Positions 6,201 to 61,590 of a stretch of 64,000 nucleotides of DNA are shown here, piece after piece (position 1 is the stretch's first letter; each line of letters opens with the position of its first letter). Under the pieces are notes generated by a model, which worked only from the letters and a program-made list of their open reading frames with translations, did not search any database and had not been told where the DNA came from. The translations under genes and the position numbers were made by a program. The stretch spans positions 2,607,462 to 2,671,461 of the forward strand of contig CM082592.2 in NCBI GenBank assembly GCA_040954595.2, written 5' to 3'. The DNA is from Balanoglossus misakiensis (Eukaryota; Animalia; Hemichordata).

Positions 6201-9200
6201 TAATCTATGTTGTGTTCACATTGTCTTATTTCTGTCCAAAAATAACAACCTGTTCTGTTTAAGTACGTGCCAACAAGGTAACTGGACGTGCAGCACGATG
6301 CCATGCCCTGAAGGTAATTATTGTTGTCAACGTCTCTCTCATTTTGCATTTGTTAAATTCTTATTTTGATATAATTGGTTGCTGTTTTGCCGCGGCACCG
6401 AAGAATAACGGGATACATAATTTTGAATTCTAAGAAACGGACAGAGACCCATATGCTAGGAGAGAAACATGTACACCGTTTGAAATGAAAAGTTGGTTGT
6501 AATGCGACGGACAAACTCAGATCCCAGTAGACATTTGCTGTCGGTTCCCTGCGAGAGACGCACTGCCGTGCCGATGGCCACGTAGCTTAGTTTTTTTTAA
6601 TCAAAATATGCAGCTTTGATATTATTTTGGGGTGTCATCATGACAAGTTTTTGTTTATTTCTGACGCAGAAAACTGCTACCATGGTGAAGTATTATACCC
6701 AAACGGCGGCACTAGGCAAGAAGATTGCAATACCTGGTAAGTCCTGGAGGTTCTGATAACCATGGAGACCGTGCTGTTTAATTCCGCCTTCTTTACTACT
6801 ACCGTCTTCTCAGTAAATTCTTTTACCTTTAGTTTGAACACCTGATACCTCATTAGATCCAGAAATGTGTTATGAGAGAGAGAGGGGGGAGAGAGAGAGA
6901 GAGAGGGGGGGGAGAGTGTGAGAGAGAGAGCGAGAGGGGGGTGAGAGAGAGAGAGGGGGGGGGGAGAGAGAGAGAGAGAGAGAGGTGGGGGAGAGAGAGA
7001 GTGTGAGAGAGAGAGCGAGAGGGGGGTGAGAGAGAGAGAGGGAGAGAGAGGGGAGAGAGAGAGAGAGGGGGGGGGAGAGAGAGAGTGTGAGAGAGAGCGA
7101 GAGGGGGGTGAGAGAGAGAGAGAGAGAGAGGGGGGAGAGAGAGGGGTGGGGGGAGAGTGTGAGAGAGAGAGCGAGAAGGGGGGTGGGAGAGAGAGAGAGA
7201 GGGGGAGAGTGAGAGAGGTGGGGGAGAGAGAGAGTGTGAGAGAGAGAGCGAGAGGGGGGGTGAGAGAGAGAGAGAGAGAGGGAGAGAGACAGAGAGAGAG
7301 AGAGTGAAAGTGAGAGAGAGAGGGGGGAGGAGAGAGAGAGTGCGAGAGCGAGAAGGGGGTGAGAGAGAGAGAGAGAGAGAGGGGGGAGAGAGGGGGAGAG
7401 AGAGAGAGAGAGGTGGGGGAGAGAGAGACAGAGAGAGAGAGAGGTGGGGGGAGAGAGAGAGAGGGAGAGAGACAGAGAGAGAGAGAGTGAAAGTGAGAGA
7501 GAGAGGGGGGAGGAGAGAGAGAGTGTGAGAGAGAGAGCGAGAGGGGGGTGAGAGAGAGAGGGGGGGAGGGAGAGAGGGGAGAGAGAGAGAGAGAGGTGGG
7601 GGAGAGAGAGGGAGAGAGAGAGAGAGAGAGTGAAAGTGAGAGAGGGGGGAGGACAGAGAGAGTGTGAGAGAGAGAGCGAGAGGGGGTGAGAGAGAGGGGG
7701 AGAGAGAGAGAGAGGGGGGAGAGAGAGAGAGAGAGGGGGGGGGAGGAGAGAGAGAGAGAGTGAAAGTGAGAGAGAGAGAGGGGGGAGGAGAGAGAGAGTG
7801 TGTGAGAGAGAGCGAGAGGGGGGTGAGAGAGGGGAGAGAGAGAGGGGGGAGAGAGGTGGGGAGTGAGAGAGAGGGGGGAGAGAGAGAGAGAGGGGAGAGA
7901 GAGAGAGAGGGGGAGAGAGAGAGAGAGAGAGGTGGGGAGAGAGAGAGGAGAGAGGGGGGGAGAGAGAGAGAGAGAGAGGGGTGGGGGAGAGAGAGAAAGA
8001 GAGAGGGGAGGGAGAGAGAGCGAGAGAGAGAGTGAAAGTGAGAGAGAGAGGGGGAGGAGAGAGAGTGTGTGAGAGAGAGAGCGAGAGGGGGGTGAGAGAG
8101 AGAGGGGAGAGAGAGAGAGAGGTGGGGAGAGAGAGAGAGGGGGAGAGAGAGGGTGGGGAGAGAGAGAGAGAGGGGGGAGAGAGAGAGCGAGAGAGAGAGG
8201 TGGGGGGAGAGAGAGAGAGAGAGGAGAGAGAGGGGGGGGAGAGAGAGGGGAGAGAGAGAGAGAGAGAGAGAGAGAGGGGGAGAGAGAGAGTGAGTGAGAG
8301 AGAGAGAGAGAGAGAGAGGTGGGGGAGAGAGTGAGAGAGAGAGAGTGTTTCGATGGATGCCGTTTCGTAATAATCTGTGTTGTGTTCACATTGTTTTATT
8401 TCTGTCCAAAAATAACAACATGTTCTGTTTTAGTACGTGCCAACAAGGTAACTGGACGTGCAGCACGATGCCATGCCCTGAAGGTAATTATTGTTGTCAA
8501 CGTCTCTCTCATTTTGCATTTGTTAAATTCTTATTTTGATATAATTGGTTGCTGTTTTGCCGCGGCACCGAAGAATAACGGGATACATAATTTTGAATTC
8601 TAAGAAACGGACAGAGACCCATATGCTAGGAGAGAAACATGTACACCGTTTGAAATGAAAAGTTGGTTGTAATGCGACGGACAAACTCAGATCCCAGTAG
8701 ACATTTGCTGTCGGTTCCCTGCGAGAGACGCACTGCCGTGCCGATGGCCACGTAGCTTAGTTTTTTTTAATCAAAATATGCAGCTTTGATATTATTTTGG
8801 GGTGTCATCATGACAAGTTTTTGTTTATTTCTGACGCAGAAAACTGCTACCATGGTGAAGTATTATACCCAAACGGCGGCACTAGGCAAGAAGATTGCAA
8901 TACCTGGTAAGTCCTGGAGGTTCTGATAACCATGGAGACCGTGCTGTTTAATTCCGCCTTCTTTACTACTACCGTCTTCTCAGTAAATTCTTTTACCTTT
9001 AGTTTGAACACCTGATACCTCATTAGATCCAGAAATGTGTTATGAGAGAGAGAGGGGGGAGAGAGAGAGAGAGAGGGGGGGGAGAGTGTGAGAGAGAGAG
9101 CGAGAGGGGGGTGAGAGAGAGAGAGGGGGGGGGGGAGAGAGAGAGAGAGAGAGAGGTGGGGGAGAGAGAGAGTGTGAGAGAGAGAGCGAGAGGGGGGTGA

Positions 9201-12200
9201 GAGAGAGAGAGGGAGAGAGAGGGGAGAGAGAGAGAGAGGGGGGGGGGAGAGAGAGAGTGTGAGAGAGAGCGAGAGGGGGGTGAGAGAGAGAGAGAGAGAG
9301 AGGGGGGAGAGAGAGGGGTGGGGGAGAGTGTGAGAGAGAGAGCGAGAAGGGGGGTGGGAGAGAGAGAGAGAGGGGGAGAGTGAGAGAGGTGGGGGAGAGA
9401 GAGAGTGTGAGAGAGAGAGCGAGAGGGGGGGTGAGAGAGAGAGAGAGAGAGGGAGAGAGACAGAGAGAGAGAGAGTGAAAGTGAGAGAGAGAGGGGGGAG
9501 GAGAGAGAGAGTGCGAGAGCGAGAAGGGGGGTGAGAGAGAGAGAGAGAGAGAGAGGGGGGAGAGAGGGGGAGAGAGAGAGAGAGAGGTGGGGGAGAGAGA
9601 GACAGAGAGAGAGAGAGGTGGGGGGAGAGAGAGAGAGGGAGAGAGACAGAGAGAGAGAGAGTGAAAGTGAGAGAGAGAGGGGGGAGGAGAGAGAGAGTGT
9701 GAGAGAGAGAGCGAGAGGGGGTGAGAGAGAGAGGGGGGGAGGGAGAGAGGGGAGAGAGAGAGAGAGAGGTGGGGGAGAGAGAGGGAGAGAGAGAGAGAGA
9801 GAGTGAAAGTGAGAGAGGGGGGAGGACAGAGAGAGTGTGAGAGAGAGAGCGAGAGGGGGGTGAGAGAGAGGGGGAGAGAGAGAGAGAGGGGGAGAGAGAG
9901 AGAGAGGGGGGGGAGGGAGAGAGAGAGAGAGTGAAAGTGAGAGAGAGAGAGGGGGGAGGAGAGAGAGAGTGTGTGAGAGAGAGCGAGAGGGGGGTGAGAG
10001 AGGGGAGAGAGAGAGGGGGGAGAGAGGTGGGGAGTGAGAGAGAGGGGGAGAGAGAGAGAGAGAGGGAGAGAGAGAGAGAGGGGGAGAGAGAGAGAGAGAG
10101 AGAGGTGGGGAGAGAGAGAGAGAGAGAGGGGGGAGAGAGAGAGAGAGAGAGGGGTGGGGGAGAGAGAGAAAGAGAGAGGGGAGGGAGAGAGAGCGAGAGA
10201 GAGAGTGAAAGTGAGAGAGAGAGAGGGGGAGGAGAGAGAGTGTGTGAGAGAGAGAGGCGAGAGGGGGGTGAGAGAGAGAGGGGGAGAGAGAGAGAGAGGT
10301 GGGGAGAGAGAGAGAGGGGGAGAGAGAGGGGTGGGGAGAGAGAGAGAGAGGGGGGAGAGAGAGAGCGAGAGAGAGAGGTGGGGGGAGAGAGAGAGAGAGA
10401 GGGAGAGAGAGGGGGGGGAGAGAGAGGGGGAGAGAGAGAGAGAGAGAGAGAGAGGGGGGAGAGAGAGAGTGAGTGAGAGAGAGAGAGAGAGAGAGAGGTG
10501 GGGGGAGAGAGAGTGAGAGAGAGAGAGTTTCGATGGATGCCGTTTCGTAATAATCTGTGTTGTGTTCACATTGTTTTATTTCTGTCCAAAAATAACAACA
10601 TGTTCTGTTTTAGTACGTGCCAACAAGGTAACTGGACGTGCAGCACGATGCCATGCCCTGAAGGTAATTATTGTTGTCAACGTCTCTCTCATTTTGCATT
10701 TGTTAAATTCTTATTTTGATATAATTGGTTGCTGTTTTGCCGCGGCACCGAAGAATAACGGGATACATAATTTTGAATTCTAAGAAACGGACAGAGACCC
10801 ATATGCTAGGAGAGAAACATGTACACCGTTTGAAATGAAAAGTTGGTTGTAATGCGACGGACAAACTCAGATCCCAGTAGACATTTGATGTCGGTTCCCT
10901 GCGAGAGACGTGCTGCCGTGCCGATGGCCACGTAGCTTAGTTTTTTTAATCAAAATATGCAGCTTTGATATTATTTTGGGGTGTCATCATGACAAGTTTT
11001 TGTTTATTTCTGACGCAGAAAACTGCTACCATGGTGATGTATTATACCCAAACGGCGGCACTAGGCAAGAATATTGCAATACCTGGTAAGTCCTGCAGGT
11101 TCTGATAACCATGGAGACCATGCTGTTTAATTCCGCCATCCTTTCTACCGCCGTCTTCTCAGTAAATTCTTTTACCTTTAGTTTGAACACCAAAACAGAT
11201 GAGACTCTTTTATGAAGGATAAGCTTATCTGTAATTTTGATGCGGATCATTATTTAGCGTTTATCATATTAACTTATGATATAGCAGGGTCAGCAAGGTA
11301 TTTTGACACTCGTCTATTTGCAGACGATACCAGTCTATTTCATACATTTAATTCAAGAAATATAATAGATCTCTCAGAAGTAAATTCACAATTGAAAAAT
11401 GTTATAAACTGGTGTGATGCCAACAAATTAACTGTACACTCAAAGAAAAGTGAATATGTTATTTTTAGAGGTAAGAACGTGTCAGTAGAGACAACAGGAG
11501 AAATTGATGTTAAAGGGGTAACAATAGACGAAGTACAAACAACTAAGTATATCGGTGTAGAAATAGACAATAAGTTAACATGGAAACATCACATTAGAAA
11601 TGTAAACAGAACGATTAGTATGAAGACTGGTATTCTTTATAGGTTAAGGGATGTTGTCCCACGACATATTCTTATACTATTGTACAATTGTTTTATCCTC
11701 CCACACATTTCCTATGCTATAGAAACTTGGGGAAATACTTATTTATCTTTTTTGAGGCCAATACTTCTTACACAGAAAAGAATTGTACGTGTATTGGCGG
11801 GATCAGACCGTCTTGCACACTCTTCACCATTGTTTAATGAGTTACATATTTTGAATGTATACAAGCAACGTGATCTTCAACTGTCCTTGTTTGTTCATGA
11901 TGCTCTTAATGGCAAGCTTCCACCAGGATTCTCAGAGTATTTCGTTCCTATTCAACACTCTTATCATACCAGATCAAAAGATATAGGCGATCTTCTTATT
12001 CCGAAATATAACAGTAATGCTGGCCAACATTCCATAAAGTACACTGCAGCAAAGGTTTGGAATAAACTTCCTGAAAATATGCGCTCAACAAGGTCAACAT
12101 TTTCATTTAAGAAACATATGAAATCCTTGTTAGGAAAAGTATAGTTTGACTTTTATTTTTTCCTTTTGTATGTATTACTAACTGTTCACCATGAGGGGGT

Positions 12201-38531: not shown

Positions 38532-41500
38532 TCACTCACTGGTTTCAAGAGTTTCTCCAATCCAATATTTGTCAATGATTCTGTGTTCAAAAGATTTCAA
38601 TTTAAATAATCCTGAAAAAAAAGAATAAAGATGATTAAAACCTTTGGATAAATGTTTTTAACAGATATAACTCATCCTTGATAGAAGCCTGGCCCATGAA
38701 TTTTTGGTTTTCCCCTCGCCCTTGCCAATAAACAAACCTTTGGTCAGGGCGTTGTCCATTATTTCTATAACAGTAAAACTTGTCTAAACGGTAAACCATG
38801 CCAAAAATGGCCAAGCATGGGACTCATGAGGACATATATCTTGTTTACACATGATGTCACTAACTGAAAGTGTTCATTACAAAATGGCTTCCACTCGGTG
38901 TCTACAGACTTCAGTGCACCAGCTCTCAAGGTAGGTCAATCAAGTTTTGTTTTTGAAACACAAACTTAAAGGTCACATCCAATTTACATATGCCCATATA
39001 TGGCTGAAATGGCGTATTTGAAGGTTCTAAAGAACATATGGTGGCGCTCTTTTTTTCGCGTGTGCCACCCACAAAAAAAACGTGATTGGCTAGATCACAA
39101 GTTTACCATGGTAACTATAGCTAATTTTCCATAGGTGACCGTATACCTTTAAACTTGCATTATAAGCCAGTTCTTACCATCATTTGCTTTGGAGTCGGTA
39201 GTAACAAGTGTGCTCAATTCATACATACAGCTATTCTGCCGTTGTTTACAGATAGACATTAGCTTGGTGACTGAGAGATAGACCCACACGAAGATGCATC
39301 CAAAGGGAAAGAAAGGCGCTTTATAGGTGTATTCCATGATCATTCCATAGCGATAAAATGACCAGATCATATCCGATCTCTCCTGGACTTCTTCGACATA
39401 CATGCTATAAAATTTAAATAAATTAGAATGTAATTAATGCAATATACGTGACTGCCTATTATACACAGAGTCTGGCGTATAATATGTCACACAATATAGT
39501 GTATGCAATGTACTGGATGTGTGGTCTCTTCAATGCATCATTAACAGTGCCCTCATTCCACTTTGCGGTAAATGTAAGGATTGAAGTTACTATTAAATGC
39601 CATCAAATCAAAGTATTCTGTTATGTATAGTTTGAACTCATCTGAGAATAGATTATTTTCCACTCTAGACTTAATAAATTACCATAGCAATGGTAATAAA
39701 ATCAAACTTTGTATGAAACTAAAATAGACGCAGCGCTTAAATAAAGCCCCTATAGCTGTTACTTTTGCCATATTTTTAATTGATGAAATACTTCAATCTT
39801 CTCCTTATCGTCAGTCGACAAATGATTCTTTTTGACTATGTGGGGACTTTAATATTCATGTGCACATATCATGATAGTTGTGTACTCATGGGCAATTATT
39901 TAAATGGGTGTGGCACCTGTTTATTATTTTACCTGTTCATTTTTACATGTACAGCGACAATCGGATGTTGGCGATACGTTTGTGTGACCCACCAATTAAC
40001 TCACTCAAATGAAACATCTAAGTTCAAAAGTAATATCATGAAAATAATTTTAAAATTAGCACCTATTGAGGCTTTAACAAAAAATGTAACTTTTGTGTCA
40101 TGATGGGCCATCCCATGTACTGTAAAACACTTTATTTTCACGAGCAATAAATTTTCGCAAAATACGCGAGAGCCAAAATAGCGTGAAAATAAAAAGTCGC
40201 GTAATTTTTTTTTAAGATAACGATGCAGTGAATGAAATAAGAGAACGCGAAAAATTAATACTCGCGAAACAGTGGCCTCTCTCGATATCGCGAAAATTTT
40301 AACTCACGAAAATAAAGTGCTTTACAGTATTTGTCCTTTGCCATGAGAATGTCCTAGCCAATCTCACAGGGTTTCGTGCAGTTTGGAAAATGCTCTACCG
40401 GTATTAATAACATACCTGAACACAGCAATCAGCAGATTAAGTAGCAGTACATTTGCAATGAGCACATAAGTGGCTATCAACAATGGCATCCAAACTTGCA
40501 CAACACACCCTGGATCACTTGGTTCAACACAAGTTATATTTTCACCTGAAACCCAAAAAAAATAAAAAAATTCTTTAAATATTGTGTGGGCTCTGGAAGA
40601 TTTTTAGAGGGGAAAAAATCCTGCAGACATCAATAAAAAAAATAGCCACAGATGGCTTGAAAAAACAGGTGGCTATATGCTAATTATGTAAAAGGCTGAT
40701 GAGGCACCATACCTGATACATGTTACCTGATACACGTGTCCGGCAGTTCTAAAGTAAAAACATACTCGGAAAAACTTTTACTGGATGCCGAAATATTTTT
40801 GGCCCGTCACCTGGAAATGACAACGCCATGGGTCGCATGGCCAGATCACGTGATTGATGGCAAAGAATAGGAAATTTATGTCCAAATTGAGTTTACAGAT
40901 GTGAAAAGGCTTGGTTGTTGACAGTACTTGAGTATGATAACTTTCCGTTGCATCACAATCAATGTAAATTATTACCTTTCACTTCTACGTCATCTGTGAG
41001 CAGATCACCATGCATTCGAAAGTAGAACTGGTAGAGAATACTTGCAAACACAACAGGACTTGCTGGAGTGTTGGGTTGTTCCAGAGCAATGTAAGCTGTA
41101 CCAAATGCCAAGTAGAACACCAGCAATATGACAAGAAATATCAACAACTCCTTGACCTGTGTATTAAAGAAATCAAAATGATGCCATCCAGAATTTACAT
41201 CTCGAATTTACTTACAGTAAATCTACAATGAGTCGAGAGTGTGGGATCAATTTGATACCACACTCTTCCAGAATCGAAAGCTTAAGAGACGGGCGCTGAT
41301 TGGATGACAAAATGTTCTTTAATTAATGCTTGCTAAATGTTATCCAATGGCGTGATGTGTAACACTTGGACAGAAACTATACAAAGGGCCAGACAACAAT
41401 GTTTCTAGTGTGAATAATGATATTTTGTGGGAGAAATAGAATCTCACACACCAAGGCAAGGATCTGAGATCAGATTTCTCACAAGAGTTTTTGTCCCCCA

Positions 41501-44500
41501 CGAGCCGCAATAAATGAAATTTTGGGAAATGAGAATATTTTCAGTTTTGAGTAGACCTGACATACCTTATTGCATGATCAACAAAATGACAACAAACAGT
41601 TAATTCTGATTGGGGGGAGACACACCTTGTGGCAACTGCTGTATTTGAAAACAGCAGGTGCAATCTCCTTATAGTCATGCACGGAACAAATTGTTTATAT
41701 CATTTGATAACTACGCAGAAACGGCATACTACAAAGTTAATTTTTTTCAGCCGATGATGTGTCACATAAAAATCAAAACTGCTTACCATATGCTTGATCA
41801 TGATGAGTTTTGCTCCAAGGTGGCGGAAAGCAAACATGAATGGTAACAGACTGAGATAGCACATCAGTAAGGTCAGACCGTACAAAATTCGTACCCACAC
41901 AAAGTAGCGGGCAGCCATGAGAATCCGGGTAATAAATGACACCCAAAATAAACCCAGCATTATCAGTTTGATCATATTCCATCGTTGCACAAACCAATTC
42001 TTCATCATGGAAACGAAAGACTCTATATCATAAATGTATGGGACCTGCAGACAAAAGAATTGAGATTCAGATACATGTACATGTAGTTGGTATCATGAAA
42101 GAGCAACACTATAGCGACTGCATGTTCTGTGATTCTACTGCTTGCACAATTTTCTGATGGACACGTTCATGCTTGCTGAGAACACTTGAACTATTTTAAA
42201 GGGACAAAGTCTCTCTCTCGCTGCCCTTTTCCCGTTATTATGTTTTATACTAGACACCATTTATGTTATTCTACATATAGATCTATAGTGAATCAACGTT
42301 CGACCACACACAGTACAAGTCAACTATGGAGGACGTGCATTTACTTCAGCTGCTTAAAATCTCTGGAACTCACTGCCTATAATGACATTCGACTAGCACC
42401 CAGTCTAGACTCTTTGAAGAGAAAACTGAAGACATTATTTGTTTGAAATAGCCTACGGTGAACTACTGGATTATGGTGCCATATAAATTTGTTGATTGAA
42501 ATTTTGTTGATTGAAGACTACGGCTTGATTGATATTGTTCTCACCTACCAGTCGGATTTCTTCAATAGTGAACAAGAACATCCACACAGCAACTATTATT
42601 TCAAGAACACTGGGGGCGCCATTTTCACCATATGTATGCAGATCAGTCAACACAAAGATAGTGAACATAGTCAACAGAAGAATCATTGACAGCTGGAAGA
42701 TACAAAGTGGATTTCATAATTATTACAAAACAGATGGTATGATATGCTAAGTGACGTGTTTCATAAATTGCTTTCAACATGAATTTTTAAGACAACCAAA
42801 ATGAAGATATCGACTTCCGAAAATAACCATCATGAATAAAATTGAACATTATGCCAAGATATTAATTGAAGCATGAAAATTCAGGGCAAAGGTAGCTGAC
42901 AAGTAACTTACCAAGCTGAAGTAAAACTGCGTTCGTGGAGAGAATAAAAAGCTTGTGAACTCTTTCATCCATTCATCAGATCCACTTTCATATGTGCCGT
43001 CTTTGCCGCACCACAGTGTGGTCAGTTTTGTCTGACAACACGGCTGGTGCATGAAATCCTCATTGTGGTAGTACCACGCAATCTTCAAACAATTGATCTC
43101 TCCAAACGGCTGCTGTGAACTAGATTCGTGTGATAGCTCCAGAGGAGAGACCAACAGTTCTTGCGACTTTTTCCTGTCTTCGTTGTAACATTTCTTGATT
43201 GCATCACAGGCAAGTTTGGAGAATTCACTGGTGAAAAAAATGACGGAGAAACTCATTGCTGTGATATGATTGACAGTTTTCTGATTGGTGATTCATGTCA
43301 TCGACTGACTCTACCATTTTCACTTTGACCATAGCTAATACATTTAGTTTGACAATTCTGTCAGGGTGGTCATTCAGCATACTGTAAAACACTTTATTTT
43401 CGTTAGCAATAAATTTTCGCGAAATACGCGAGAGCCAAAATAGCGTGAAAATGAAAAGTCGCATAAATTTTTTTTGATAACGATGCGGTGAATGAAATAA
43501 TAAGAGAACGCGAAAATTAATACGCGAAACAGTGGCCTATCTCGATATCGCGAAAATTTCAACTCGCGAAAATAAAGTGTTTTACAGTATATCATCTAGT
43601 TTTACTTCATAGTATATGTACCGGTACTTCCAATTTGTAGTTTCAGTTTCACAACAGCTTACAACATGTCGAATTATATAAACTAAATATAAGAGAAAGT
43701 TATGTAACATTCATAAAAAACCTGCATGCCCTTGCTATGTCTTTATACTTGCAAGAATGTAGTCTTATATTTTTTTTTATGGCTCTTGCGTATTTCGTGT
43801 AAATTTATTGCTCGCGAAAATAACCTGTTTTACAGTATTATAACACACCTTTAATCCGTAATCTGTGTTGTAATTCGCCAATGTCAAGTCACAAGAGGTG
43901 TATCAATTTGGCGCTGTTGCCTGGCCAAGTTGGGAAGCACCATCTATGCCAAACACTCAAGAAAACTAAGACGGCGACGTCGTCTGCGCCCAAGCCAATT
44001 TGATGACAGCAGAGAAATTTCCTGATTTGTGCTACTATCGGATAAGGTGTGTTATAAAAGAAATATTGAATGGCCATTATAATTCGCCCCTAAACAGTCT
44101 GTTGCACTCAGCCTCTGGAAACAGACTGTTTTGAGGCAACCCACAGTCCCTCGGAATTCAAAAACAAACGACTATGCTGTTTAACCCTACCTATGACATG
44201 GCCGGCCAATATGTGTATAGTAATGCTCATCTGATACAATTATATGTCATTTTCTTACAGCAAACTGCAAGTTCAAATCTACTAAAAATATTGCATTCCA
44301 CCCCTCCATGTTTAAATTCCAACTTTGACAGAACACAAACCATGCACGTCCAAAATAAACGGTATATCTGCTTGCTTGCTTGCTACTCAAGTTAATCAAA
44401 TGGTTTGACAGGTCAACCACCATCATCAGACAAATGCTGCAGGTGATTTTGATTCTGCATTTTCAATTTCATGAGATTTCTAAATTTACAAACTTTTGTC

Positions 44501-47500: not shown

Positions 47501-50500
47501 ACTGACATTGACGTGAAGCCAAACTCTTTTCCACCCAAACGTCTAACGCGAACGTGGGTTCTACGCGTCCACGTAAAACGTGTAGCCGAGCCTGTTATTG
47601 CTTTTGCTTGGAGAGGATCAAAAGTGTTGGTAATGTTTCTGAATGAATGTATGCTATTGATAAATTGAATGAGAGACACAATCAATACACTTTATCTAAA
47701 TATCCAGAGATCACCAGGATGATACTGACAAACTACGCAGAATGATCATCATTGTAAAAAAGTCAGAAATCTGTTTTTCAGCCAAAAACATCACTCCCTT
47801 ACCTGTCTTTTTATATGTAACCCCAGTATATCTTCAGCCGATTTCTTTGAGTGAATCAGATTTCTGTCGGATGTGATCAACTGCAGTTGACAATTATCTG
47901 CACTCCCAGCAGCTGTCAAATAAAATGAAAAATACATGTAGAAGAGAAATTTAAAGAGAAACCATAAATCAAGAATCTGGTTTTAATACTAAAGACATAG
48001 GATCTCATTGAACCTGTATTTCTTTCTGTTGGTTTCTGTCTGTGAGTTTAAAATGGCGGCTGGTTCAAATCATGCGTATGTCCACATTTAAATTCAATCT
48101 TAGTGTAAAGGGCATAAACATAGTTCACGGCATTCTTTAAAGGGACAAAGTCTCTCTCTCGCTGCCCTATATATTTCTATTAGTTATGTTTGATAGAAGA
48201 CACCGTTTATGTAATTCTACATGTGGATACATGTATATAGTGAATCAACGTTCGACCACATGCACATTGCCACTTCCACTCCACTTGTAGACACGAGAGT
48301 GAATACTCGCAAAAATGAATAATCGGTCTCCACCATTTATTCATTTTGGCAAGATTTTTACTCTCATATCCTACAAACGGGATGGAAGTTGTGTGTGGTC
48401 GAACATTGATTCACTATATATCCACATGTACCGGTAGAATAACATGGTGTCTTGTATCAAACATAATTAATACAAATAGGGCAGCAAGAGAGCATTCAAA
48501 TAGTGGACCGCCTTCGCTTCCTTCCATATTTCATGCGCACCGTATAAGTAGATTAATTCTTGTTTTGTCCCTCCTTTTCACCCAAGCTGGTGTCTTTTCC
48601 CGATCTCCGACACAGATTATGGTCGCCGCCATCTTCTCTGTTGTTAGGACAGGACTGCCTTATGGGATTGACTGCTCACTAAACGTCTGTAACCAGCGGC
48701 TACAGCTGGAACATGCGTGTGAGACGAGCTACGTGCTTTAAATTCATGCGTTGTATCTTCTGAGCTATGTCAAGAAATTACCTTTGAAGATGGCATCTGT
48801 AATGACCTTCAGTGCTCCTTTACTCACATGAATCCCACAGACTATTATCTTCTGTTTTGAAAGACATAACATGGAAAAATAAAAATTGACATTTTTAAAT
48901 CCACATATAATTTTAACAGAATGTTCAATTTAATGGCAAACGACAGACATGTGGATCGATAGGGCTTGTTTGGAAGACTTTTGATTTTAAAGGGTGATGC
49001 TGAACATACTGCTATTAAAAATATCAATTATTCTGAAACAGTAAACTTTAAAAGAAGGTGAGGAATTATCAAAATAAACACATAAATGTCAAAATTTGAA
49101 CTAAGCTGAAAAAGGGTCATCCCTATAGTCCTACAGTATATACAATGTAGCAAATAGTTTATGAAATTTATTGTCAGGGTCATATAACTAGGCAAAACCC
49201 CCGCTGCAGCATGTACAATTTAAAGCCTGTCAAATTGAAAGAAAGTTTTTAGAAACCAAAAATTTATAAGCTTGAGGCTAATCCTTACATTTTCATCATT
49301 TTCACCTTGTTCCAGATTATTAATCTGTTCGAGACATTTCTCATACACGTTGAAATCCTCTTCAGAACATTTCACACCTTTTAACATTCCTGTGATTTGA
49401 TTGGTAGACAACGGCACGCCACTGCTCCTGAAACAAAGCATTAGGATAGACACATTCACTCCATGTGGGAAAAAATTTGGTTTAAAAAATCAGTGAGCTG
49501 GTTCACCAATGCTATACACTTTGGGGTGAGGGGGTCATGTATGCATATTATTTCATAGCAGGATTTAGAAAAAAATTGAGCATCACAATTAAATTCTGTG
49601 ATGTGACCTCACTTTTGTATATGTGTAAATGCCACCATGTCATCAGCTGTTCCCTTTTCCATGTATGTTGTTAAGATACGGATATCCTGGCTGAGTGCAT
49701 GGCAAGCCGCTTCCAATTCGACTTTGCCACCTTGTACCAAGAACCAGGTCAATGAAACAGGCTTCTTCGCTGTTTGTACAAAAAATATCCAATAGTTTTA
49801 TGAAAGTCTAAAATCTCCAGCTTTCTCCAGTCTCCTTGTAATCACATGGAACTCAGCCTGATAAACAAACAAACAAACAAACAAACAAACATACCGACAG
49901 ACAGAATACATACATACATACATGTACTTACATACATACATACATACCGGTACAGACAGACAGACATACATACATACATACGACAGACAGACAGACAGAA
50001 TACATCGTTGTAAGCCACAAGGTAAATCATAACACGCTGACTACATGTACATTGCGGAAATTGTCACTGCACTGTCCAAAGAATCACGTGTCTGCATGAC
50101 CAAGGAAAAATCAATTTTCATGCAAGTATAGCATCAGACCTTGATACGTAGAACACAGATGGAATGTAGAACATATATATATAAACACGTTCTATTTCAA
50201 TTTCTATACTGGCCAAGTTTGTAACGGTTATACATGTGAGTGCGTATCAGCCAATCACGAATATGACATAATACGTGAGGTGTAATAACATTAGATAACA
50301 TAAGACTTACTGTCTTTATCAAGGTCTTGAGTATCATGAGTATGATTGTGCTTCTTGTGACTGTGGACAATGAAGTTAAAAAACAATACAGTGAAATCTC
50401 TATTGGGAAAACTGACAAGAATGCTGCGCAAAATGACTTATTTTGCACAAATGTTGATTTTATCATGAAGAGTGGAGAATGTTGGCAGAAAAACATTTTC

Positions 50501-53500
50501 AAGATTTTGTGGTCTGATTTAGATAATACCAAAGCAAACTGGATTTTTATTGACATGACCAGCTGCCAATTTCTGAATTAATTTCATGACTCAACTTTGA
50601 AACTAAAGAATGGTCCATTGAAATGAACTATGTGATGGGTTTACCCGAACATATTATCAACCTCTTACAATTATTGGGTGGCACACCTGTTTATTCTACT
50701 GGTATGTGCAATGATACATTAGAATCCTATTATCATTTGAAAATATCAGCTCAAATCTATAGCAGTACATGCAACATGTCTGAGACTCACCTATTTTGAA
50801 ATCCTTTCCATTTGTAACACACGCCACATAACACGTCATTTTTGCATATATTCTCACTGCAGGTGTAGATGGTATCCCAGATGTGCTTGCCACATCTTGT
50901 GCATCTCCTGAAACATGGGTGAAGAAATATACAGTTTGTAATAATCAATTCACTTGAAGGGAAGCGGTCGCGTGGGTGTCCCCCTCAATGAGAATATGCA
51001 TCAGTCCTCCCATAGCAGCGCAAACCCCACTGCAGTCGCCACGACCTACTAGGATCTTCAGTTGCTGTCATGCCCAGTCTACGCTACGGTTGGCTGCTTC
51101 GTTCATTCTAAGAATTATCTTATTTGAGGGATTTGTGGATGAATTGTTTATAAACAAACAAACGCGGCGCGATGACCCCTTCACTTTTATAGGAATTAGT
51201 AATGAATTTACCGGTAGTAATTATACCAGAGTGTTTACTTCACTGTGTGCGCACTTCAAAACTATCTCAGCATGCAATTACACTGCAATTTTGCTTCAAT
51301 GCCACAGAAATCTGTTGAATTCCGTTCCAGAAATTATCATACAGTCTCATAGATGCAGTTCAAGCAGAACCCAAATATAAAAGATGCAGGTAGCATCCGA
51401 TACATTTCATAAAATGTTATCATTACACAGTGATAATTCTATACGGACTATCATGTTGGGGCTGCATTCAATTGTCTTCACGTTTATGAGCATGTACTTT
51501 GCTTTACTTGCAAAATATACACCAGGACACTTACCATGATCCTTTACGCTTGTCAATCGGAGCAAAATGTGCTGGAAAGTTAAAATATAAAGACTTTTAT
51601 GACAATGAAGATTGTAATGACTATAACTCCTTCAGATTTATGTATTAATTGTTGGCAAATGTAATTGATTGTACTCTTTCAATCTATCTGATGTGTATAA
51701 ATAATAGTTCTTACTGACCACATCACAGGGTTAATTTAACTGAGTGACAATTTATAGTCACATTATTGTTACATTGGAAGAAGATGAAAGATTGAACAAA
51801 AAGACAATGGAGATGTCTGTATCGTAGTACCTGCAGACAGTAAAACTTGACTAAACCGAACACCATGCAAGGGGACTGAAGAAATTGTTCATTTTACAGA
51901 GGTTTCTGGTTTATCGAGTGAATCAAGGTTCGACCACACACAACTTCCATCCCATTTGTAGGATATGAGAGAAAAAATCAATAGACGGTAGAGTCCGATT
52001 ATTCATTTTGGCGAGTTTTTCACTCTCGTGTCTACAAGTGGGATGGAAGTTGTGTGTGGTCGAACGCTGATTCACTGTATATCCACATGTAGCATAACAT
52101 AACGGTGTCTTGTATCAAACATAATTAATGGGAAAGGGGCAGCGAGAGAGAGAATTTGTCCCTATTAAGCGAAGCTGTAAATATGTTAGTCTATCTGTAA
52201 AATGACAAACCTGCATCCCATGTATCAAAATTCATAATGGATGAGTCATGACCTTCACTATCATGCCTGCATGGAAATATACAAAGAGTTTGGATATACT
52301 AATATTTGAAAATTACAATTGTGGACTGGATATGCAGTAAAAGCCCCAGTAATTCCAACTTCTGGCTAATTTTTCAGTATTTTTCTCACATGTATCAAGT
52401 CCGGTTTCTTGTTCTACTATGCATATAGCTTTATGAAATATTCAGTTTTTAGCTTCTCAAACAAAACATTTAAGAGTAACAGTCAACGTTATTGTTCAAA
52501 AGTGAAATCAAGTCTGGACCTGAATTCAATTTTTAACAATATCAATAATGATAATACTGAGCAATTCTTTATGTTTTAAAGAGCAGAACAAGAAACCACA
52601 GTTGACACCCAAAACACAATTACTGAGGAAATAGCTCAAAGTTAGGGTAATTAACTCTTGCTATAATGTTATAGTATGAAAAGACTTTAAATCATATATG
52701 AATGAAGTTAAATAATTTTGCCGAGTTTTACTGTATCTTTAAATACGGCACTCTCTGATAGTGCATGTTGTGTACTAAAATGAAATGTTAAAACATGGAT
52801 TTTAAGCCTTGAGACCGTCAAGCTGGGAAAACTGAAGACCCCGCATTGGAATTAAAAATCTCACAGATTTAATTGTTTGGCACATCATTGCTTTCATGGA
52901 ATATGGAATATTAGGTGAAAGGCCAAATATTGCAGGCAAACTTACCCCTTCTTCCATTTGCCACTCTCCATACACACACTACAAAGATCATAGTCACCAC
53001 ATCTGGAACAGTGTGCACCTGGTCCAATTATTAATCGGCTGCAACCATCACAAGTCCTATCGTAATATGTAAATAAACAGATTCTCTGCTGTTAAAGGGA
53101 CAAAGTCTCTCTCTCGCTGCCCTTTACCCATAATTAAGTTTGATACAAGACACCGTTTATGTATATAGTGAATCAATGTTCGACCACACATAACTTCCAT
53201 CTCACTTGTAGACACGAGAGTGAAAAAACTCGCCAAAATGAATAATCGGTCTCTACTGTTTATTCATTTTGGCAAGTTTTTACTATCATATCCTACAACA
53301 TAAACGCCACCGTGTCTTGTATCAATCATAATTAATGGAAAAGGCCTTTTTTAAGGGGCAGCGAGAGAGAGACTTTGTCCCTTTTAAATGTCATCAAGCT
53401 ACATCAAGCCGGTGGCCCAAACATGACTGAAATTAGTGAGTGCTAATTTGAAATTCATTTGGTGAACACAGTTTTCTTCTTTATTTTCAAAAAGACTCGT

Positions 53501-56500
53501 TGTATAACTTTCAGATAGCAAAGAATAAAGGCTTTGGAGGACTTTCATTTTCCCGAAAATCTGTCCTCGACAACCCCAGTGTATGGTTATCATATTCCAT
53601 AAGCCTTATGTCTTGAATTTTTATAAAAGACTGTTGCAATATTGTAATTTTCTTGAAATTTTCACAAAAAGTTCCAAGAAAAGAGAATTATTAAATGACA
53701 TAAACAAAAAACACTATGTCAGCCATGCTCAAGTTTTCAATAGCTGTGTTCAGATTGTTTTTGCCATAAGAAAAAAATAGCATGAGGAATGCAAGGAAAG
53801 TGCTGGCTCAGCATTTTCCACAATATTTGAGACCCCCCTCGTAACTAAAAAAAGTAGGATGGGAACTCCCTGCTTTCTCCCTGTATGTATCTCCCTATTC
53901 TTTGATACACAATATACATAAACATCAGCACCTATCGTTCGCTATAAAGCACCTTCTGATTGGTTTACTGGCCAAGCAAAGCCTGAGATTTCAACGGGAG
54001 CTTCAGTGGAAGTTGGTCAGATGTAGTGTGAGGCGACAGCATAAGAAAACCGTACCGCGTACGTAAAAGACGTCGCCGTTCCCTACATCTGACTTTTTAA
54101 TCAGATTGCTATTGGGGCTTCAAATCAAGAATTTTTTTGAAAGATCCTCAATAATCATGCATCAACAGCCAACAAAACGTACCAGTGAAATTCTCTGTCT
54201 TGATTCCCACTTTTTGGAACTGTAAAAAAATAATAGTGATATAAGGGTATTAGGAAAACCCTTTGGACATCACATCACATCACATACCACACTACATTAC
54301 ACTACACCACATGACATGACATCGCACCATGTCATATTACGTACACCACATCACATCGTAATCACAACATATTTCACCACACCACACCACACCACACAAC
54401 ATGACATCACCCCACATTATATTACGCCCAATGAAATCACATCACACCACATCAAATCAAGCATCATATCACACCAGTGACACCACACTACATGTACATC
54501 ACATATCACCAAATAACAATAAGCCTTAGACATATATGACCAACGTCTATATAGTCAATCAAGTAATTTTTGTTTCTTCCTGAACAAGACAAACCAGTCT
54601 TTCAATTAACTGCTCTTTCCAAATTAGATCAAGATTTTGCACAATACAAGACTTGTGTTTATATGATCAGCTGCAGGAGGACAGTCCACTGACGTGTGCC
54701 TTGACAGCTGTTGCACCCCAAAAAGCAAAGTCTCACATATAGCTCTGGTGATAAACAAGATCTCATCGGCCATTATGCGTCAAAGGCTAAACATTTGTCA
54801 AAGAGTAGGCCTAAAAATACAAAATCTGAATGTTCTTACCAAATTTTGAAAATTCATTCGAACAGGTATCTTTCAAATACTTGACCAGCTGAACACTAAT
54901 TTCATATGTCTTTGTCATGTTTCTTTCCCTATCATTATTATCTTCAACAAGGATGTAGAAGTTGTGGCGGAAATCAAGGAATGTCTTCCCAGTTTGTCTA
55001 GAGCTCTTTCCATCAGTACCACGAACGTCGCAATCAAATGAATTTTGATCTGTCCTTCTCTGAGGATAAAGAAGACAAATGAGATTTATTTGGGAATACT
55101 GGTGTACCGCTATGTACCAAATTAGAAAATATATTATCTATATCATTTGAACAAGCTGCAGCCACTAATAAAAGCCTCCAGAGCTGCCAAATGTCACGTT
55201 TCTTCCACAATAAAATGCTTTGAATCTATTCCCCACTATTAGGCCATATTATTTTTATTTTCATCATTTTGTCATCTCTTGGCAACACATACCACGATAG
55301 CTGCGTACTGTTTGTATGGAGGCTGATTAAACTTTTTTTTTGGGGGGGGGGGGGGTTAAGTCTGGACATTGACTAGTTGAAACATACATACATGTAATTG
55401 ATTGTCTGTGGGTAGATTCTTTCCTGCGCACAAAACACTTTCCATTTGGTTTCCAAACAAGCATTTTGCAATTCTAATTTAGAGTCACAGTTGGCTGGCT
55501 CAGTAACTACTACCATATTGTGACACACAGGCACTACCATGGCATAGGATTCTGCAAAGGCTTCCACAAGATTACTTATAAGACATTGAGAACACATCAA
55601 AGAAATAGTAGTGATATAGAAAAGCAATTGGACAAGTACTCAAAATGGTTCCTGATAAATAGTTTTTAACCCAAAGTGGCAAAAATTCTCCCAAATATGA
55701 TATGAACAAATTTGATGTGGACCATTCCTGCACAGTTCACACCAAATATACCTGTGAGCAATTGGGCAAGTAAAACAGATGTTTTGAGAAAAAATGAAGA
55801 TTTTGTTTTTTTAATTAACTAAAAACACAAAAGTTCTCATAGTCATAATGGCTCAAGATATACTACAGGGTATACCGGGTACAGTCACTATGGTGCATAC
55901 AAACTACATTTCAAAGCATTCTTACTAAATTCTCTGTGACATGTCAATTAATTTTAAATAAAATAGTCACTGAACTCACCAAATTACATAAATGACTCTC
56001 TGCTGCTATGGCAACCAAGTATACATCTTTGCTGAGGCAGAAATCTTTCTGTTCAGCTCGTTCCTCTTCCAATACATCACACAACATTTCAGTGATGCCA
56101 CAGTGAAAACCGCTGGTGATTATCAGTGCACCTATCAATACACATGAGAAATATCATTTTTTTATTATAAGAATGCATGTACTGTAAAATGGGAAATTAA
56201 CACGACAGGAAATTTTCGTGTTAGATAAAGCAGTAACTGTTACACGACAATATCCCCGGCCCCGAAAAACATTCATGTGACTTTTATTTTCATGTTTTTT
56301 TTTGGCTCTCGTGAAGTTCGCGAAAATTTATCGTTCGCCAAAATTTCCCATTTTACAGTACTCCTAGTACTCCTACAGTACTTCACACTGAATCATCACA
56401 GTTACTTCATGGACACATCAATCAATATAACAACTGGTCTCTTACCTGTCTGAAGTGCACCCTCAACCACATTCTGTAGAAATGTTCTCATCAATGAAGG

Positions 56501-57741
56501 ATTCTTGACTTCGTCCTCAGAGGACATGATACCATAAACTATTTCCGGAATTTGCCAACCATCTCCAAAGCTCTTCTCCACAGAATTCCATATTTCACTA
56601 ATGTTGTGTTCATTTATTTCTTTTTCTTTATTCACCCGAAGGAACTTTGAGATTAAAGACAACGACAGACTGGTTGACAATAATACGCAAATGTTCAAAT
56701 CAGTACTTGCAGTTTTGGATTTTTCTTCAAAATTTCTCCCTTCTCCATTTTAACTGCAGTTTTTTGTTCTACTCTTAAATGATGAAATGTTCACTATTTT
56801 GCTTGTCAACATAACCCACATAACAGTTATAGCTATGTTATTATTGATAAATGACTTCAAGCCATTGACATCCATGCTTAATAACCATGTGTTGTAATGG
56901 CATCAGCCTAGGAGATAATCCGGGATGAGACCATTACCAAAATTGACCATAGTAACCATGGTTGACCAATACTAGTACACAGTCAAGCAAAATTGGATGA
57001 GTCATCATCACTGATGATCATCATGGTCTATAAATAGTGTGTCTAATGGATCGCACAATAGGGTATTAAAGGTACAAAGTCTCTCTCTCGCTGCCCTTTT
57101 TCCATTAATTATGTTTGATACAAGACACCGTTTATGTTATGCTACATGTGGATAATATAGTGAATCAAAGTTCGACAACACACAACTTCCATCCCGCTTG
57201 TAGACACAAGAGTGAAAAACTCTCCAAAATGTATAATCAGACTCTACCATTTACTGTAAAACACTATTTTCGCTTTTTTTGTTAATTTTTTAGTTAATTT
57301 TTTCGCGATATCGAGAGAGGCCACTGTTTCGCGAGTATCACTTTTCGCGTTTTCTTATTTCATTCACTGCATTGTTATCTTAAAAAAAAAATTACGCGAC
57401 TGTTTATTTTCACGCTATTTTGGCTCTCGCGTATTTCGCGAAAACGTATTGCGAAAACAAAGTATTCATTTTGGGCGAATTTTAACTCTCATATCATACA
57501 AGCGGGATGGAAGTTGTGTGTCGTCGAACATTGATTCACTATATATCCACATGTAGAATAAGATGATAAATAGTGTCTTGTATCAAACATAATTAATGGG
57601 AAAAGGGCAACGAGAGAGAGACTTTGTCCCTTTAACTATTATACATGATAATTACTCTACATCTTACTGATGTATACTTACAGATTTTTTAGGTCCATCA
57701 TGTTGTTCAAAATTTATAGAACCTATAGCAAACTTCATCAT
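38532..57741 (-). CDS. TRPM-family cation channel with two ZZ zinc fingers inserted in the SLOG/MHR1-2 region (~1,126 aa, 26 coding exons; extreme ends uncertain)
   Basis: Exons (-): 57741-57682, 56644-56446, 56131-55980, 55059-54840, 54219-54183, 53056-52946, 52266-52211, 51571-51535, 50907-50791, 50360-50311, 49769-49613, 49427-49289, 48851-48782, 47912-47803, 46872-46738, 46438-46343, 46099-46003, 45712-45611, 44686-44587, 43227-42912, 42692-42549, 42044-41787, 41156-40976, 40545-40416, 39404-39178, 38611-38532. TRPM hallmarks: GALIITSG, LDFRHNFYILVED, LVQGG, LKLFLENG, YFWALLFGRIELAKIIW, CCQTKLTTLW, six TM segments, HLGAKLIMI, S6 NVLLLNLLIAVFS, TRP box IWSFYRY. Confidence 0.88.
39745..40073. 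mobile_element. MITE family with AGCCCC...GGGGCT ends and TTAA target (second copy ~45192-45540)
   Basis: aaagcccctatagctg...ctattgaggctttaa, and ttaaagccccaatag...ctattggggctttaa, share internal sequence. Confidence 0.6.
40120..40327. mobile_element. Tc1/mariner-type MITE with TA target (copies 43382-43587, 56182-56358, nested ~57254-57463)
   Basis: TA|CTGTAAAACACTTTATTTTC ... GAAAATAAAGTGYTTTACAG|TA. Confidence 0.85.
50311..54219 (-). other. Two tandem three-exon ZZ zinc-finger cassettes inside the TRPM gene
   Basis: ZZ-1: FHWTCDGCSRLIIGPGAHCSRCGDYDLCSVCMESGKWKKGHDSEGH. ZZ-2: SWRCTRCGKHIWDTIYTCSENICKNDVLCGVCYKWKGFQNSHKKHNH. Confidence 0.85.
54266..54510. repeat. Degenerate pentanucleotide (CACAT/CACCA)n repeat
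   Basis: catcacatcacatcacataccacactacat... directly visible, intronic. Confidence 0.85.
57070..57631. mobile_element. Palindromic TTAA-target MITE (AGGGACAAAGTCTCTCTCTCGCTGCCC ends) with a nested TA-MITE; other copies 53096-53383, 48141-~48493, ~51915-52164, ~42200-42330
   Basis: Long TIR, TTAA on both sides (57066-57069, 57632-57635), five copies all in TRPM introns. Confidence 0.85.
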
Positions 57742-59379: not shown

Positions 59380-61590
59380 ATGGCGACTGCAGGCACCGAA
59401 GGGAAAATCCTGAAGGAAATCAGTGAAGATTTCCTGTGCTGTACCATCTGCCTGGAGCTGTATACAACTCCTAAAATTCTACCATGTCTGCATACCTTCT
59501 GTCAGCAGTGTCTGGTCACTCTGGTTGCAAAGACAGGATCTCTCACCTGTCCAGAATGTCGACAGAAATTTCAGATTCCTGTTGGACAAGTGCCAAGTTT
59601 GAAGGGAAATTTCTTCATGGCCAGCCTTGTCGACAACTTCAAGCGACGGATGGAGTCCGTGCGTGCACCTGCTGAGGTCAAGTTCAAGTGTGAAGCTTGC
59701 CAAGAGAATACAGCCACTCACAGGTGTGTGGAATGCAAACATTATCTCTGTAACAGCTGTGTTCAGGTCCATAGCAATCTGTCGAAAACCCACAGACTTT
59801 TGACCATTGAAGAGTTCGAAACAACAAAGTCAAGCAGTCCGGTGACATTGCAAGCAGTAGAATATTGCAGTGTCCACACCAAGAATGAAATTGAATTCTA
59901 CTGTGACACCTGTCAGGTTCCTGTCTGTACAAACTGTACAATAGATAAACACCGCATACCAGAACATGTGTACAGAGACTTGAAAGACGCAGCAGACGAG
60001 TATCTGAGAGACTTGGCAGCCATGGTTGACAAACTGAAAGTGAAAGAACAGGAAGCTGAAAAGAACAAAAGCCTGGCCAAGCAGATACACAGTGATCTCA
60101 CAGAGCAGCGCAAGAGAGAAGAAAGGAAGGTGACAATGAAAGCAGAAGAAGAAATCAACCGAATAAAGAGAGAAGAGCAAAGACTTGTGGATGAGCTGAA
60201 CAACATCTACAAAATGAAACTAAAAACAGCGGCTGTGTGCATTGACGAGTTGGAATTAAAGCATGGAAACATTAAGAATGCCTGCAGTTACGTTGAAACA
60301 CTGATGCATCATGGGCATGCAGCTCAGCTGTTGTCTACAAAGGGTGACGCAGAGCATCGCATCAAGCAACTGATTACCATGGAAACAAAACCACAGGCAC
60401 GTAGTGAGGAAGTTGTATTCCAACCAAGTGTTGACTTCAATGAGCAGGGAATTCTGGGACTACTGACATCTGATGTCTGTATTTCAAAGTGTACCGTCGA
60501 AAACGTTCCCAAACAACTCCTGAAAGGTGACTCTGCAGATCTACTGATCACAACCAGAGATTCCACCGGAAAGCAAGTCGCCCCAACACAACCGGTGAAA
60601 GCCAAGCTGAGAAAACCTGATGCATCGTGGGAAGACCTGAAAGTATCGGATAACAGAGACGGGACGCACAGACTGACAGTGGATGGAAAACAGGATGGTA
60701 AATATCAGGTTGCCGTGACAATTGGGGATCAACCGGTACCAGGCTCTCCTGTCAGCATACCTGTCATCAAAGGATTGGTTCAAAGCATTGGCTGTGAAGG
60801 GAGTGCTGAGGGACAGTATGACCGGCCCTTGAGTGTGGCCTTAAACAAAGACAAAGACATTGTCACAGCTGACACAGACAATAACAGACTGCAAATCACC
60901 ACCAGACAGGGCAGAGTGAAGAAAATCTTGAAATTTACACAATTTGAGAAACCCTTCAGACCATTGGACGTATCTGTATCAAGTGACAATACACACTATA
61001 GTTTAGATAACAAAAATAAGCAAGTAGTTGTTAGTGATGAGAATGGACGTGTCATCAGATGCTTTGGACAGAATGAGCTGAAGGATCCACAGGGGATATC
61101 TATCTGCCCTGTCAGTGGTAATGTATATGTGACAGACCAGGCTGGGGCATGTGTCTTGATTTACTCACAGCATGGCAAGTACATCAGGTCATTTGGGTCA
61201 TTTGGTAAAGGTCAGGGGAAATTCATGAATGTCTGGGGGATAGAAGTGGCAAGTAATGGGATGGTGTTTGTAGCAGACTACGGCAACAAGCGTGTCCAGG
61301 TCTTCAATTCAGATGACAAGTATCTGTATTCCTTTGGTTGTCAGAGCGGGGATGGGGAGCTGAGATCGGCCAGGGGAATAACCACTGAGAATGATAAGTA
61401 TGTGTATGTTAGTACAGACATTCCCAGCAGCATTCTGAAGTTTGAGATTGGTGGCAAGTTTGTTTGTCGCATTGATTGTGATGGGGACAAGCTGAACCGC
61501 CCCACTGGTATGGCACTGACAGATGATGTGCCTTGCAGGGTGATTGTAGCTGATTATGGCAACCACTGCATCAAAGTGTTTGTACAGTAA
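59380..61590 (+). CDS. TRIM-NHL E3 ubiquitin ligase (TRIM2/TRIM3/TRIM71-like): RING, two B-boxes, coiled coil, filamin, NHL repeats; 736 aa, intronless CDS
   Basis: Single ORF from ATG 59380 (MATAGTEGK...). RING CTICLE..LPCLHTFCQQC..CPEC; B-box1 CEAC..CVECKHYLCNSCVQVH; B-box2 CSVH..FYCDTCQVPVCTNC..H; filamin DNRDGTH..PVPGSP; NHL repeats VADYGNKRVQVF and VADYGNHCIKVF. Confidence 0.95.
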   Translation: MATAGTEGKILKEISEDFLCCTICLELYTTPKILPCLHTFCQQCLVTLVAKTGSLTCPECRQKFQIPVGQVPSLKGNFFMASLVDNFKRRMESVRAPAEVKFKCEACQENTATHRCVECKHYLCNSCVQVHSNLSKTHRLLTIEEFETTKSSSPVTLQAVEYCSVHTKNEIEFYCDTCQVPVCTNCTIDKHRIPEHVYRDLKDAADEYLRDLAAMVDKLKVKEQEAEKNKSLAKQIHSDLTEQRKREERKVTMKAEEEINRIKREEQRLVDELNNIYKMKLKTAAVCIDELELKHGNIKNACSYVETLMHHGHAAQLLSTKGDAEHRIKQLITMETKPQARSEEVVFQPSVDFNEQGILGLLTSDVCISKCTVENVPKQLLKGDSADLLITTRDSTGKQVAPTQPVKAKLRKPDASWEDLKVSDNRDGTHRLTVDGKQDGKYQVAVTIGDQPVPGSPVSIPVIKGLVQSIGCEGSAEGQYDRPLSVALNKDKDIVTADTDNNRLQITTRQGRVKKILKFTQFEKPFRPLDVSVSSDNTHYSLDNKNKQVVVSDENGRVIRCFGQNELKDPQGISICPVSGNVYVTDQAGACVLIYSQHGKYIRSFGSFGKGQGKFMNVWGIEVASNGMVFVADYGNKRVQVFNSDDKYLYSFGCQSGDGELRSARGITTENDKYVYVSTDIPSSILKFEIGGKFVCRIDCDGDKLNRPTGMALTDDVPCRVIVADYGNHCIKVFVQ

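Follow-up and report, generated by a model that had tools for sequence, protein, structure and literature searches.

Accessory domains described for TRPM channels, in the available text of two papers on the evolution of the family, are NUDT9H, an alpha-kinase and an N-terminal cysteine-rich segment (PMC13143021, PMC7306681). Here we describe a gene from the acorn worm Balanoglossus misakiensis that is predicted to encode a TRPM channel with two ZZ zinc fingers inserted within its SLOG/MHR1-2 domain. The gene lies in a 64,000-nucleotide stretch of contig CM082592.2 (positions 2,607,462 to 2,671,461), which was analysed whole and is called the window below; all coordinates are those of the window. 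In the TRPM6/TRPM7 chanzymes a TRPM channel likewise carries a foreign signalling domain, although their kinase is C-terminal, whereas the predicted binding module of the window's protein sits inside the N-terminal SLOG fold. With TRPM2 (nvTRPM2, human, zebrafish) the window's channel shares SLOG/MHR1-2, MHR3-4, six helices, the TRP helix, two pore-loop cysteines and an acidic filter residue at the position of nvTRPM2 E1037. Unlike TRPM2, it lacks NUDT9H, the ADP-ribose arginines, two of the four Ca2+ ligands and the N-terminal cysteine-rich segment, and it has a 136-residue ZZ insert. The first finger, ZZ-1, resembles ZZ domains that read protein N-termini (p62/SQSTM1, ZZZ3, HERC2, p300, KCMF1, PRT1, BIG), retaining six cysteines, two histidines and the equivalents of p62 D129, D147 and D149. 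It differs from p62/SQSTM1 in that N132, R139 and the PB1 domain are missing, the host is a membrane channel, and the second finger, ZZ-2, is pocketless.

The closest records come from two other acorn worms. Ptychodera flava XP_070581326.1 is an ortholog-level match, ∼60% identical and with the same insert; ZZ is absent from its precomputed domain list, though a Pfam scan finds it. The Saccoglossus kowalevskii records XP_077864174.1 and XP_006814778.1/.2 have the same divergent SLOG domain, the newer with ZZ-1 directly after the same exon and the older skipping the insert. Domain gains and losses among TRPMs were surveyed by Morini et al. 2026; in the available part of that paper the terms 'zinc' and 'ZZ-type' are absent, and the eight Saccoglossus TRPMs of its Table S1 do not include XP_006814778 (PMC13143021). 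The word 'zinc' is also absent from the available part of Himmel et al. 2020 (PMC7306681). Full-text literature searches, which were thin on subscription papers and did not include Burroughs et al. 2015 on SLOG architectures, a paper that could mention it, found no ZZ-bearing TRPM. Within those searches, the assertion in a preliminary description of this DNA that no such channel was known stands, with the addition that the P. flava protein is already in RefSeq, named 'TRPM3-like' and without a ZZ annotated.

The insert is made up of six small exons that lie between two SLOG/MHR1-2 exons, as follows (nt, nucleotides; fractions are residues identical to P. flava).

55059-54840, minus strand: SLOG/MHR1-2 exon upstream of the insert, ending past the helix with the TRPM2 ADP-ribose arginine position, as judged by alignment to ordinary TRPMs
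54219-54183, minus strand: insert exon 1, 37 nt, linker ahead of ZZ-1 (module 1), AG/GT ends; 10/12, kept in Saccoglossus XP_077864174.1
53056-52946, minus strand: insert exon 2, 111 nt, six-cysteine core of ZZ-1 with the aspartates equivalent to p62 D129, D147 and D149; 25/37
52266-52211, minus strand: insert exon 3, 56 nt, histidine ligand pair of ZZ-1 and linker, AG/GT ends; 13/19
51571-51535, minus strand: insert exon 4, 37 nt, linker ahead of ZZ-2 (module 2), AG/GT ends; 7/12
50907-50791, minus strand: insert exon 5, 117 nt, six-cysteine core of ZZ-2, divergent, basic and without the acidic pocket; 28/39
50360-50311, minus strand: insert exon 6, 50 nt, histidine region of ZZ-2, AG/GT ends; lowest conservation, 4/17
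49769-49613, minus strand: SLOG/MHR1-2 exon downstream of the insert, a strand running into the GG motif; 33/52

Each of the six insert exons is flanked by AG and GT, and together they supply 408 nt, or 136 codons, free of stops in the frame between 55059-54840 and 49769-49613. The exon coordinates that the preliminary description had given between 54840 and 49769 all hold, and so does the SLOG-ZZ-ZZ-SLOG-TRPM architecture it proposed, with six exons in frame here and the whole insert in the P. flava model. The exons form two 204-nt modules of three (37/111/56 and 37/117/50 nt), both with intron phases 1-2-2-1, and the score of the alignment between modules (44) was matched by 1/2000 shuffles. 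Because the phases are identical and the modules align at this score, the two ZZ modules likely arose when a symmetric module of exons was duplicated in tandem. The minus strand of the span contains two instances of a ZZ-like spacing of six cysteines; among order-2 Markov simulations of the span (n = 500), one match was seen in 3 and two matches in 0. Splice sites were scored with a matrix trained on 19 other donors and 19 other acceptors of the same gene. With the span's 364 GT and 262 AG sites as background, the 12 insert sites each outscore 82-100%, and 9/12 outscore >95%; one donor and two acceptors are weak.

Judged from gene models, the insert is conserved, so far in acorn-worm records only. 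XP_070581326.1 carries it entire, at residues 230-362 and in the same position. Identity between the window and P. flava is 87/136 across the insert and 222/394 across the remaining MHR1-3; five of the insert exons are 58-83% identical, and exon 6 is far less so. In Saccoglossus XP_077864174.1 (98/257 identical to XP_070581326.1), the same divergent SLOG exon leads into the same linker and then ZZ-1, within which the model ends. Of the 47 residues of the linker plus ZZ-1, 23 are the same in the window, P. flava and Saccoglossus (17/41 if the invariant cysteines are disregarded); the N-terminal segments on either side have 52/179 and 61/194 three-way identities, and the membrane part has 87/186. 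Several hundred million years separate the families of Ptychodera and Saccoglossus.

One caveat is that the P. flava and Saccoglossus sequences, like the window protein, are gene models, and the Saccoglossus models disagree with one another, the newer stopping short as just described. The six exons might on these grounds be placed outside the channel protein, as a nested gene or a prediction artefact. However, they are on the same strand as the channel, match its phase at both ends and have no start or stop of their own; the SLOG-ZZ junction aligns continuously in three species, and such very short exons are 58-83% conserved. We therefore regard this explanation as highly improbable. A second explanation is that the insert is a regulated alternative cassette, such that isoforms with and without the ZZ fingers exist side by side and the insert may be missing from the common channel. 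The frame stays open upon a direct 54840>49769 skip, as the preliminary description had claimed, and with module 1 alone or module 2 alone; three of the splice sites are weak; and XP_006814778.1 joins the flanking exons directly, a skip that may reflect a real isoform or a prediction shortcut. In-frame skipping would, however, be a property of any symmetric inserted module, the P. flava model has all six segments, and the newer Saccoglossus model continues from SLOG into ZZ-1. A cassette seems improbable to us, and it is compatible with the other explanations considered here. Residues ∼358-443 of XP_006814778.1 consist of a short tandem peptide repeat that is not in the other two species and was probably mis-included; this makes the model, including its omission of the insert, less trustworthy.

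Searches for further carriers covered several collections. Homologs of the upstream SLOG exon were sought among 7 candidates, of which none was retained, and a search with a membrane exon retained 1/17, namely P. flava XP_070581326.1. Residues 170-400 of that protein recovered only itself among 299 candidates of 630-2006 residues, a range that left out the 292-residue Saccoglossus model. A representative search yielded n = 12 proteins: the P. flava protein, two full-length ordinary TRPMs (Branchiostoma P0005 and Glandiceps P0010) and, for the remainder, fragments without the SLOG region. Pfam detects no ZZ in the two full-length ordinary TRPMs. The comparison of proteomes for SLOG-ZZ-TRPM proteins that the preliminary description had called for is thus positive for P. 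flava and, as regards ZZ-1, for Saccoglossus, and negative for the Branchiostoma and Glandiceps TRPMs. A protein-atlas search with residues 20-480 gave no usable match. ZZ-like matches were found at 20 metagenome loci, without TRPM similarity. One open reading frame from the metagenome set (L001:44-1159), thioredoxin-like by eye, has two ZZ fingers, one with a ZZ-2-like four-residue second knuckle and a Cys-Thr start and the other close to ZZ-1; its sequence suggests that similar ZZ modules may have been inserted into other hosts.

The host gene is modelled as follows.

57741-57682, minus strand: probable first coding exon, beginning with ATG and 20 codons long, phase 0, placed by splice sites and frame
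56644-38532, minus strand: TRPM coding model, 25 exons, 1106 residues, without NUDT9H or kinase tail; 658/1087 aligned residues identical to P. flava

The 25-exon model keeps one frame open over 1106 codons, with all 24 introns flanked by AG/GT, and by eye the exon at 57741-57682 appears to resemble the start of XP_070581326.1. Membrane exons of the window are 72-84% identical to that protein, and identity is 42% for Saccoglossus and 24-29% for the two ordinary TRPMs. Pfam identifies LSDAT_euk, TRPM2-like and Ion_trans domains in XP_070581326.1. The SLOG/MHR1-2 match (LSDAT_euk) has E 2.6e-12 and 47.1 bits against a cut-off of 25.7, and MHR3/4 and the ion-transport domain have E 5.3e-27 (PF25508) and E 3.2e-12 (PF00520); scanned singly, the window's exons gave no LSDAT_euk match. 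The best PDB sequence match of XP_070581326.1 is TRPM3 (E 3.6e-58), and alignments place a TRP helix after S6 and two cysteines in the pore loop. No Nudix or kinase domain was detected by Pfam in XP_070581326.1, and the P. flava protein ends at the same place as the window model, which stops at 38532, without NUDT9H. On this predicted domain content, the gene is a TRPM and not a TRPM2-type channel. MITE-like short interspersed repeats with inverted ends (MITE, miniature inverted-repeat transposable element) are present in TRPM introns at 53092-53387, 51917-52169, 57066-57636, 48136-48492 and 42193-42312, and this family reaches two introns of the ZZ insert.

The insertion site corresponds, in nvTRPM2 and TRPM3, to a loop of ∼7-15 residues between the helix of nv R271 and the strand ahead of the GG motif. 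Gating of nvTRPM2 by ADP-ribose requires R271 and R329, according to the available parts of the two sources (PMC6914804; PMC8145809). The equivalents of these arginines are Ser/Thr in the window and Ala/Ala in P. flava, and the second site is Lys in Saccoglossus, with positions mapped manually across alignments. Ca2+ is bound between S2 and S3 of TRPM2 by nv E893, Q896, N918 and D921, as given in the available part of the structural report (PMC5976436). E, L, N and K occupy these positions in both the window and P. flava, so that the Q896 and D921 equivalents are lost. At the third position of the filter, where nvTRPM2, a highly Ca2+-permeable channel, has E1037, the window has Asp, and both pore cysteines are kept. 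Given the loss of the arginines and of two Ca2+ ligands, and the retention of the filter acid and pore cysteines, the channel looks intact but devoid of the TRPM2 triggers. Structure prediction was not used as evidence: AlphaFold2 gave a mean pLDDT (predicted local distance difference test) of 52.9 for XP_070581326.1 with 16 alignment rows, at <50 over nearly the whole insert, and 45.1 for the insert alone with 14 rows. Foldseek with the insert model found no match at E<=0.001, and its ranks 1-11 were p62 ZZ, probably driven by sequence.

ZZ-1 belongs to the ZZ family. The window's ZZ-1 exon matches Pfam ZZ with E 5.9e-9 (36.1 bits, cut-off 21.4), and ZZ-1 is also above the cut-off in P. flava (E 6.7e-5) and Saccoglossus (E 1.9e-4); with the LSDAT_euk match in P. 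flava, this bears out the SLOG assignment and, for ZZ-1, the ZZ assignment proposed earlier. Six cysteine ligands are joined by a histidine pair, encoded by exon 3, in the window and P. flava; the Saccoglossus model ends ahead of the pair. The best PDB sequence match is the p62 ZZ (E 1.7e-6). The p62 ZZ contacts the alpha-amino group through D129 and D149 and the first peptide bond through D147, regardless of the first residue; the side chain of that residue is contacted by N132, and the second residue by R139 (PMC6098011, available part). All three aspartates have equivalents in the window, P. flava and Saccoglossus, and in Saccoglossus both the D147 and D149 equivalents are kept even though the residue between them is changed. 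Three of the five p62 pocket positions are thus matched. In the available part of work on ZZZ3, the equivalent aspartates of its ZZ bind Ala1 of unmodified histone H3 (PMC6138639). With the aspartates kept and N132 and R139 lost, and given the ZZZ3 and TADA2A/B results (the latter below), the ZZ-1 pocket is predicted to take a free N-terminus, not specifically an N-terminal arginine, nor with certainty.

ZZ-2 also has six cysteines, with a four-residue second knuckle; it is basic, shares its exon phases with ZZ-1 and lacks all three aspartate positions. No Pfam ZZ match at E<=1 was obtained for ZZ-2 with the window exon, nor was there any in P. flava. Scored with our own ZZ profile, built from 10 unrelated ZZs, the window's ZZ-2 has 15.6 bits (reached by 0/1000 shuffles) and that of P. 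flava 1.8 bits (reached by 38/1000). The protein-atlas label ZZ reached 0.77 for ZZ-2, under its 0.9 line, and in P. flava the second histidine is missing at the window's spacing. From its sequence, ZZ-2 is best called a divergent ZZ-like copy. Of what the preliminary description had said about the fingers, the three acidic residues of ZZ-1 are present, in the other two species as well, and their absence from ZZ-2 is borne out at all three positions. Its attribution to ZZ-1 of a p62-type degron pocket is right as to the aspartates and fails at Asn132 and Arg139. The cleaved or arginylated neo-N-terminus that it named as ligand would be one option among several, as the same aspartates read H3 Ala1.

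Our preferred reading, held tentatively and at a little short of an even chance, is that ZZ-1 binds a free N-terminus and thereby regulates a likely Ca2+-permeable TRPM channel through MHR1-2. A ZZ exon module, phase 1 at both ends, would have entered a SLOG intron before the Ptychodera/Saccoglossus split and then been duplicated. The ligand of ZZ-1 would be a free N-terminus carried by a cytosolic protein or peptide; even if it binds weakly, the four ZZ-1 copies of a tetramer could supply avidity. Once bound, it would shift the MHR1-2 module and so act on the gate, through the domain that responds to ADP-ribose in TRPM2; the pore so regulated is probably Ca2+-permeable, and ZZ-2 would serve as a structural or docking finger. 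In favour of this reading are the identity of the insert relative to the remaining MHR1-3, that of the linker plus ZZ-1 relative to the other parts compared, the aspartates whose equivalents contact N-termini in p62 and ZZZ3, and the loss of the ADP-ribose arginines and two Ca2+ ligands alongside an acidic filter residue. A bolder version, which we think unlikely, holds that an N-terminus reader has replaced the SLOG nucleotide site, such that fragments generated by proteases, wounding or arginylation would bind the four ZZ-1 copies and open the Ca2+-permeable pore, turning cytosolic proteolysis into a calcium signal.

Several observations weigh against regulation of the channel by N-terminus binding. 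Asn132 and Arg139 of p62 are lost in ZZ-1 (across the three species, position 132 is Ser, Arg or Gly, and position 139 is always Gly), and acidic residues put into the TADA2A/B ZZ domains gave no binding (PMC6138639, available part). The older Saccoglossus model splices the flanking exons without the insert. The mapping of R271 crosses a gapped stretch. SLOG itself is degenerate, with LSDAT_euk at E 2.6e-12 in P. flava versus 1.3e-62 and 4.4e-76 in the two ordinary TRPMs, and hence may no longer couple to the gate. TRPM3 also deviates from the TRPM2 Ca2+ site, so the lost Ca2+ ligands do not imply a new ligand.

Two further explanations accept the insert as part of the channel. In one, the ZZ pair is a docking module for location, turnover or recruitment of a partner (e.g. 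an enzyme or scaffold), without a direct effect on gating. In the PDB, ZZ-1 has its relatives among adaptors, E3 ligases and acetyltransferases (p62, HERC2, BIG, KCMF1, p300/CBP, MIB1), the insert takes the place of a short variable loop in TRPM2/TRPM3 and could hang off the surface, and ZZ-2 is conserved (28/39) even though it has no acidic pocket. Docking is possible on this evidence, if on the doubtful side: the host domain senses a ligand in TRPM2, and the loss of the usual ligand residues here leaves the trigger open. In the other, the fingers are zinc or thiol-redox sensors or structural braces, which metal release or cysteine oxidation would unfold, changing MHR1-2, and the aspartates would be a heritage of the ZZ consensus. 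The window and P. flava share twelve core cysteines, ZZ-2 retains its cysteines without the pocket, and CD and DxD residues are found in many ZZ domains (our profile set was selected with such patterns and so gives no frequency). However, non-ligand residues near the pocket are also conserved three ways, including the linker ahead of the first Cys and Gly/His in the first hairpin, and Saccoglossus alters the residue between two aspartates while retaining both, leaving this explanation rather improbable.

The insert represents a conserved gain of a predicted protein-binding module within the SLOG fold, alongside loss of the usual ligand residues, and offers a natural experiment on coupling between MHR1-2 and the gate. 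It also identifies a loop able to accommodate 136 inserted residues, which may be of use for engineered ligand-gated TRPM sensors. If binding gates the pore, N-terminus recognition would be linked to membrane excitability. The restriction of the insert to acorn-worm records so far limits the reach of these points.

Other features of the window include a multi-exon protein kinase gene at 34065-30427 on the minus strand, with an acidic N-terminal part and a Pfam Pkinase match on one exon (E 5.2e-7). It is probably a separate gene, 4.5 kilobases downstream of TRPM. By its motifs the kinase appears Pelle/IRAK-like, and a short stretch in the first exon of the acidic part may resemble a RHIM motif. 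Fusion of TRPM to the kinase exons was considered and is unlikely: the TRPM frame closes at 38532, poly(A)-like hexamers begin at 37619, the segment 35000-35500 is CpG-rich, and the kinase has an ATG of its own at 34065; an alternative donor near 38541 may still permit it. Upstream of TRPM, on the opposite (plus) strand, an intronless TRIM-NHL gene (59380-61587) encodes a RING, two B-boxes, filamin and NHL repeats. Cysteine-rich exons that by eye look EGF-, WAP- and VWC-like are repeated in tandem blocks over ∼4000-28000, with long GA tracts at 4000-10700; the blocks could represent an extracellular-protein gene that has expanded, or else a repeat in the assembly. A reverse transcriptase fragment of the long interspersed nuclear element type lies at 11203-12144 on the plus strand (weak Pfam RVT_1 match, E 0.0025).

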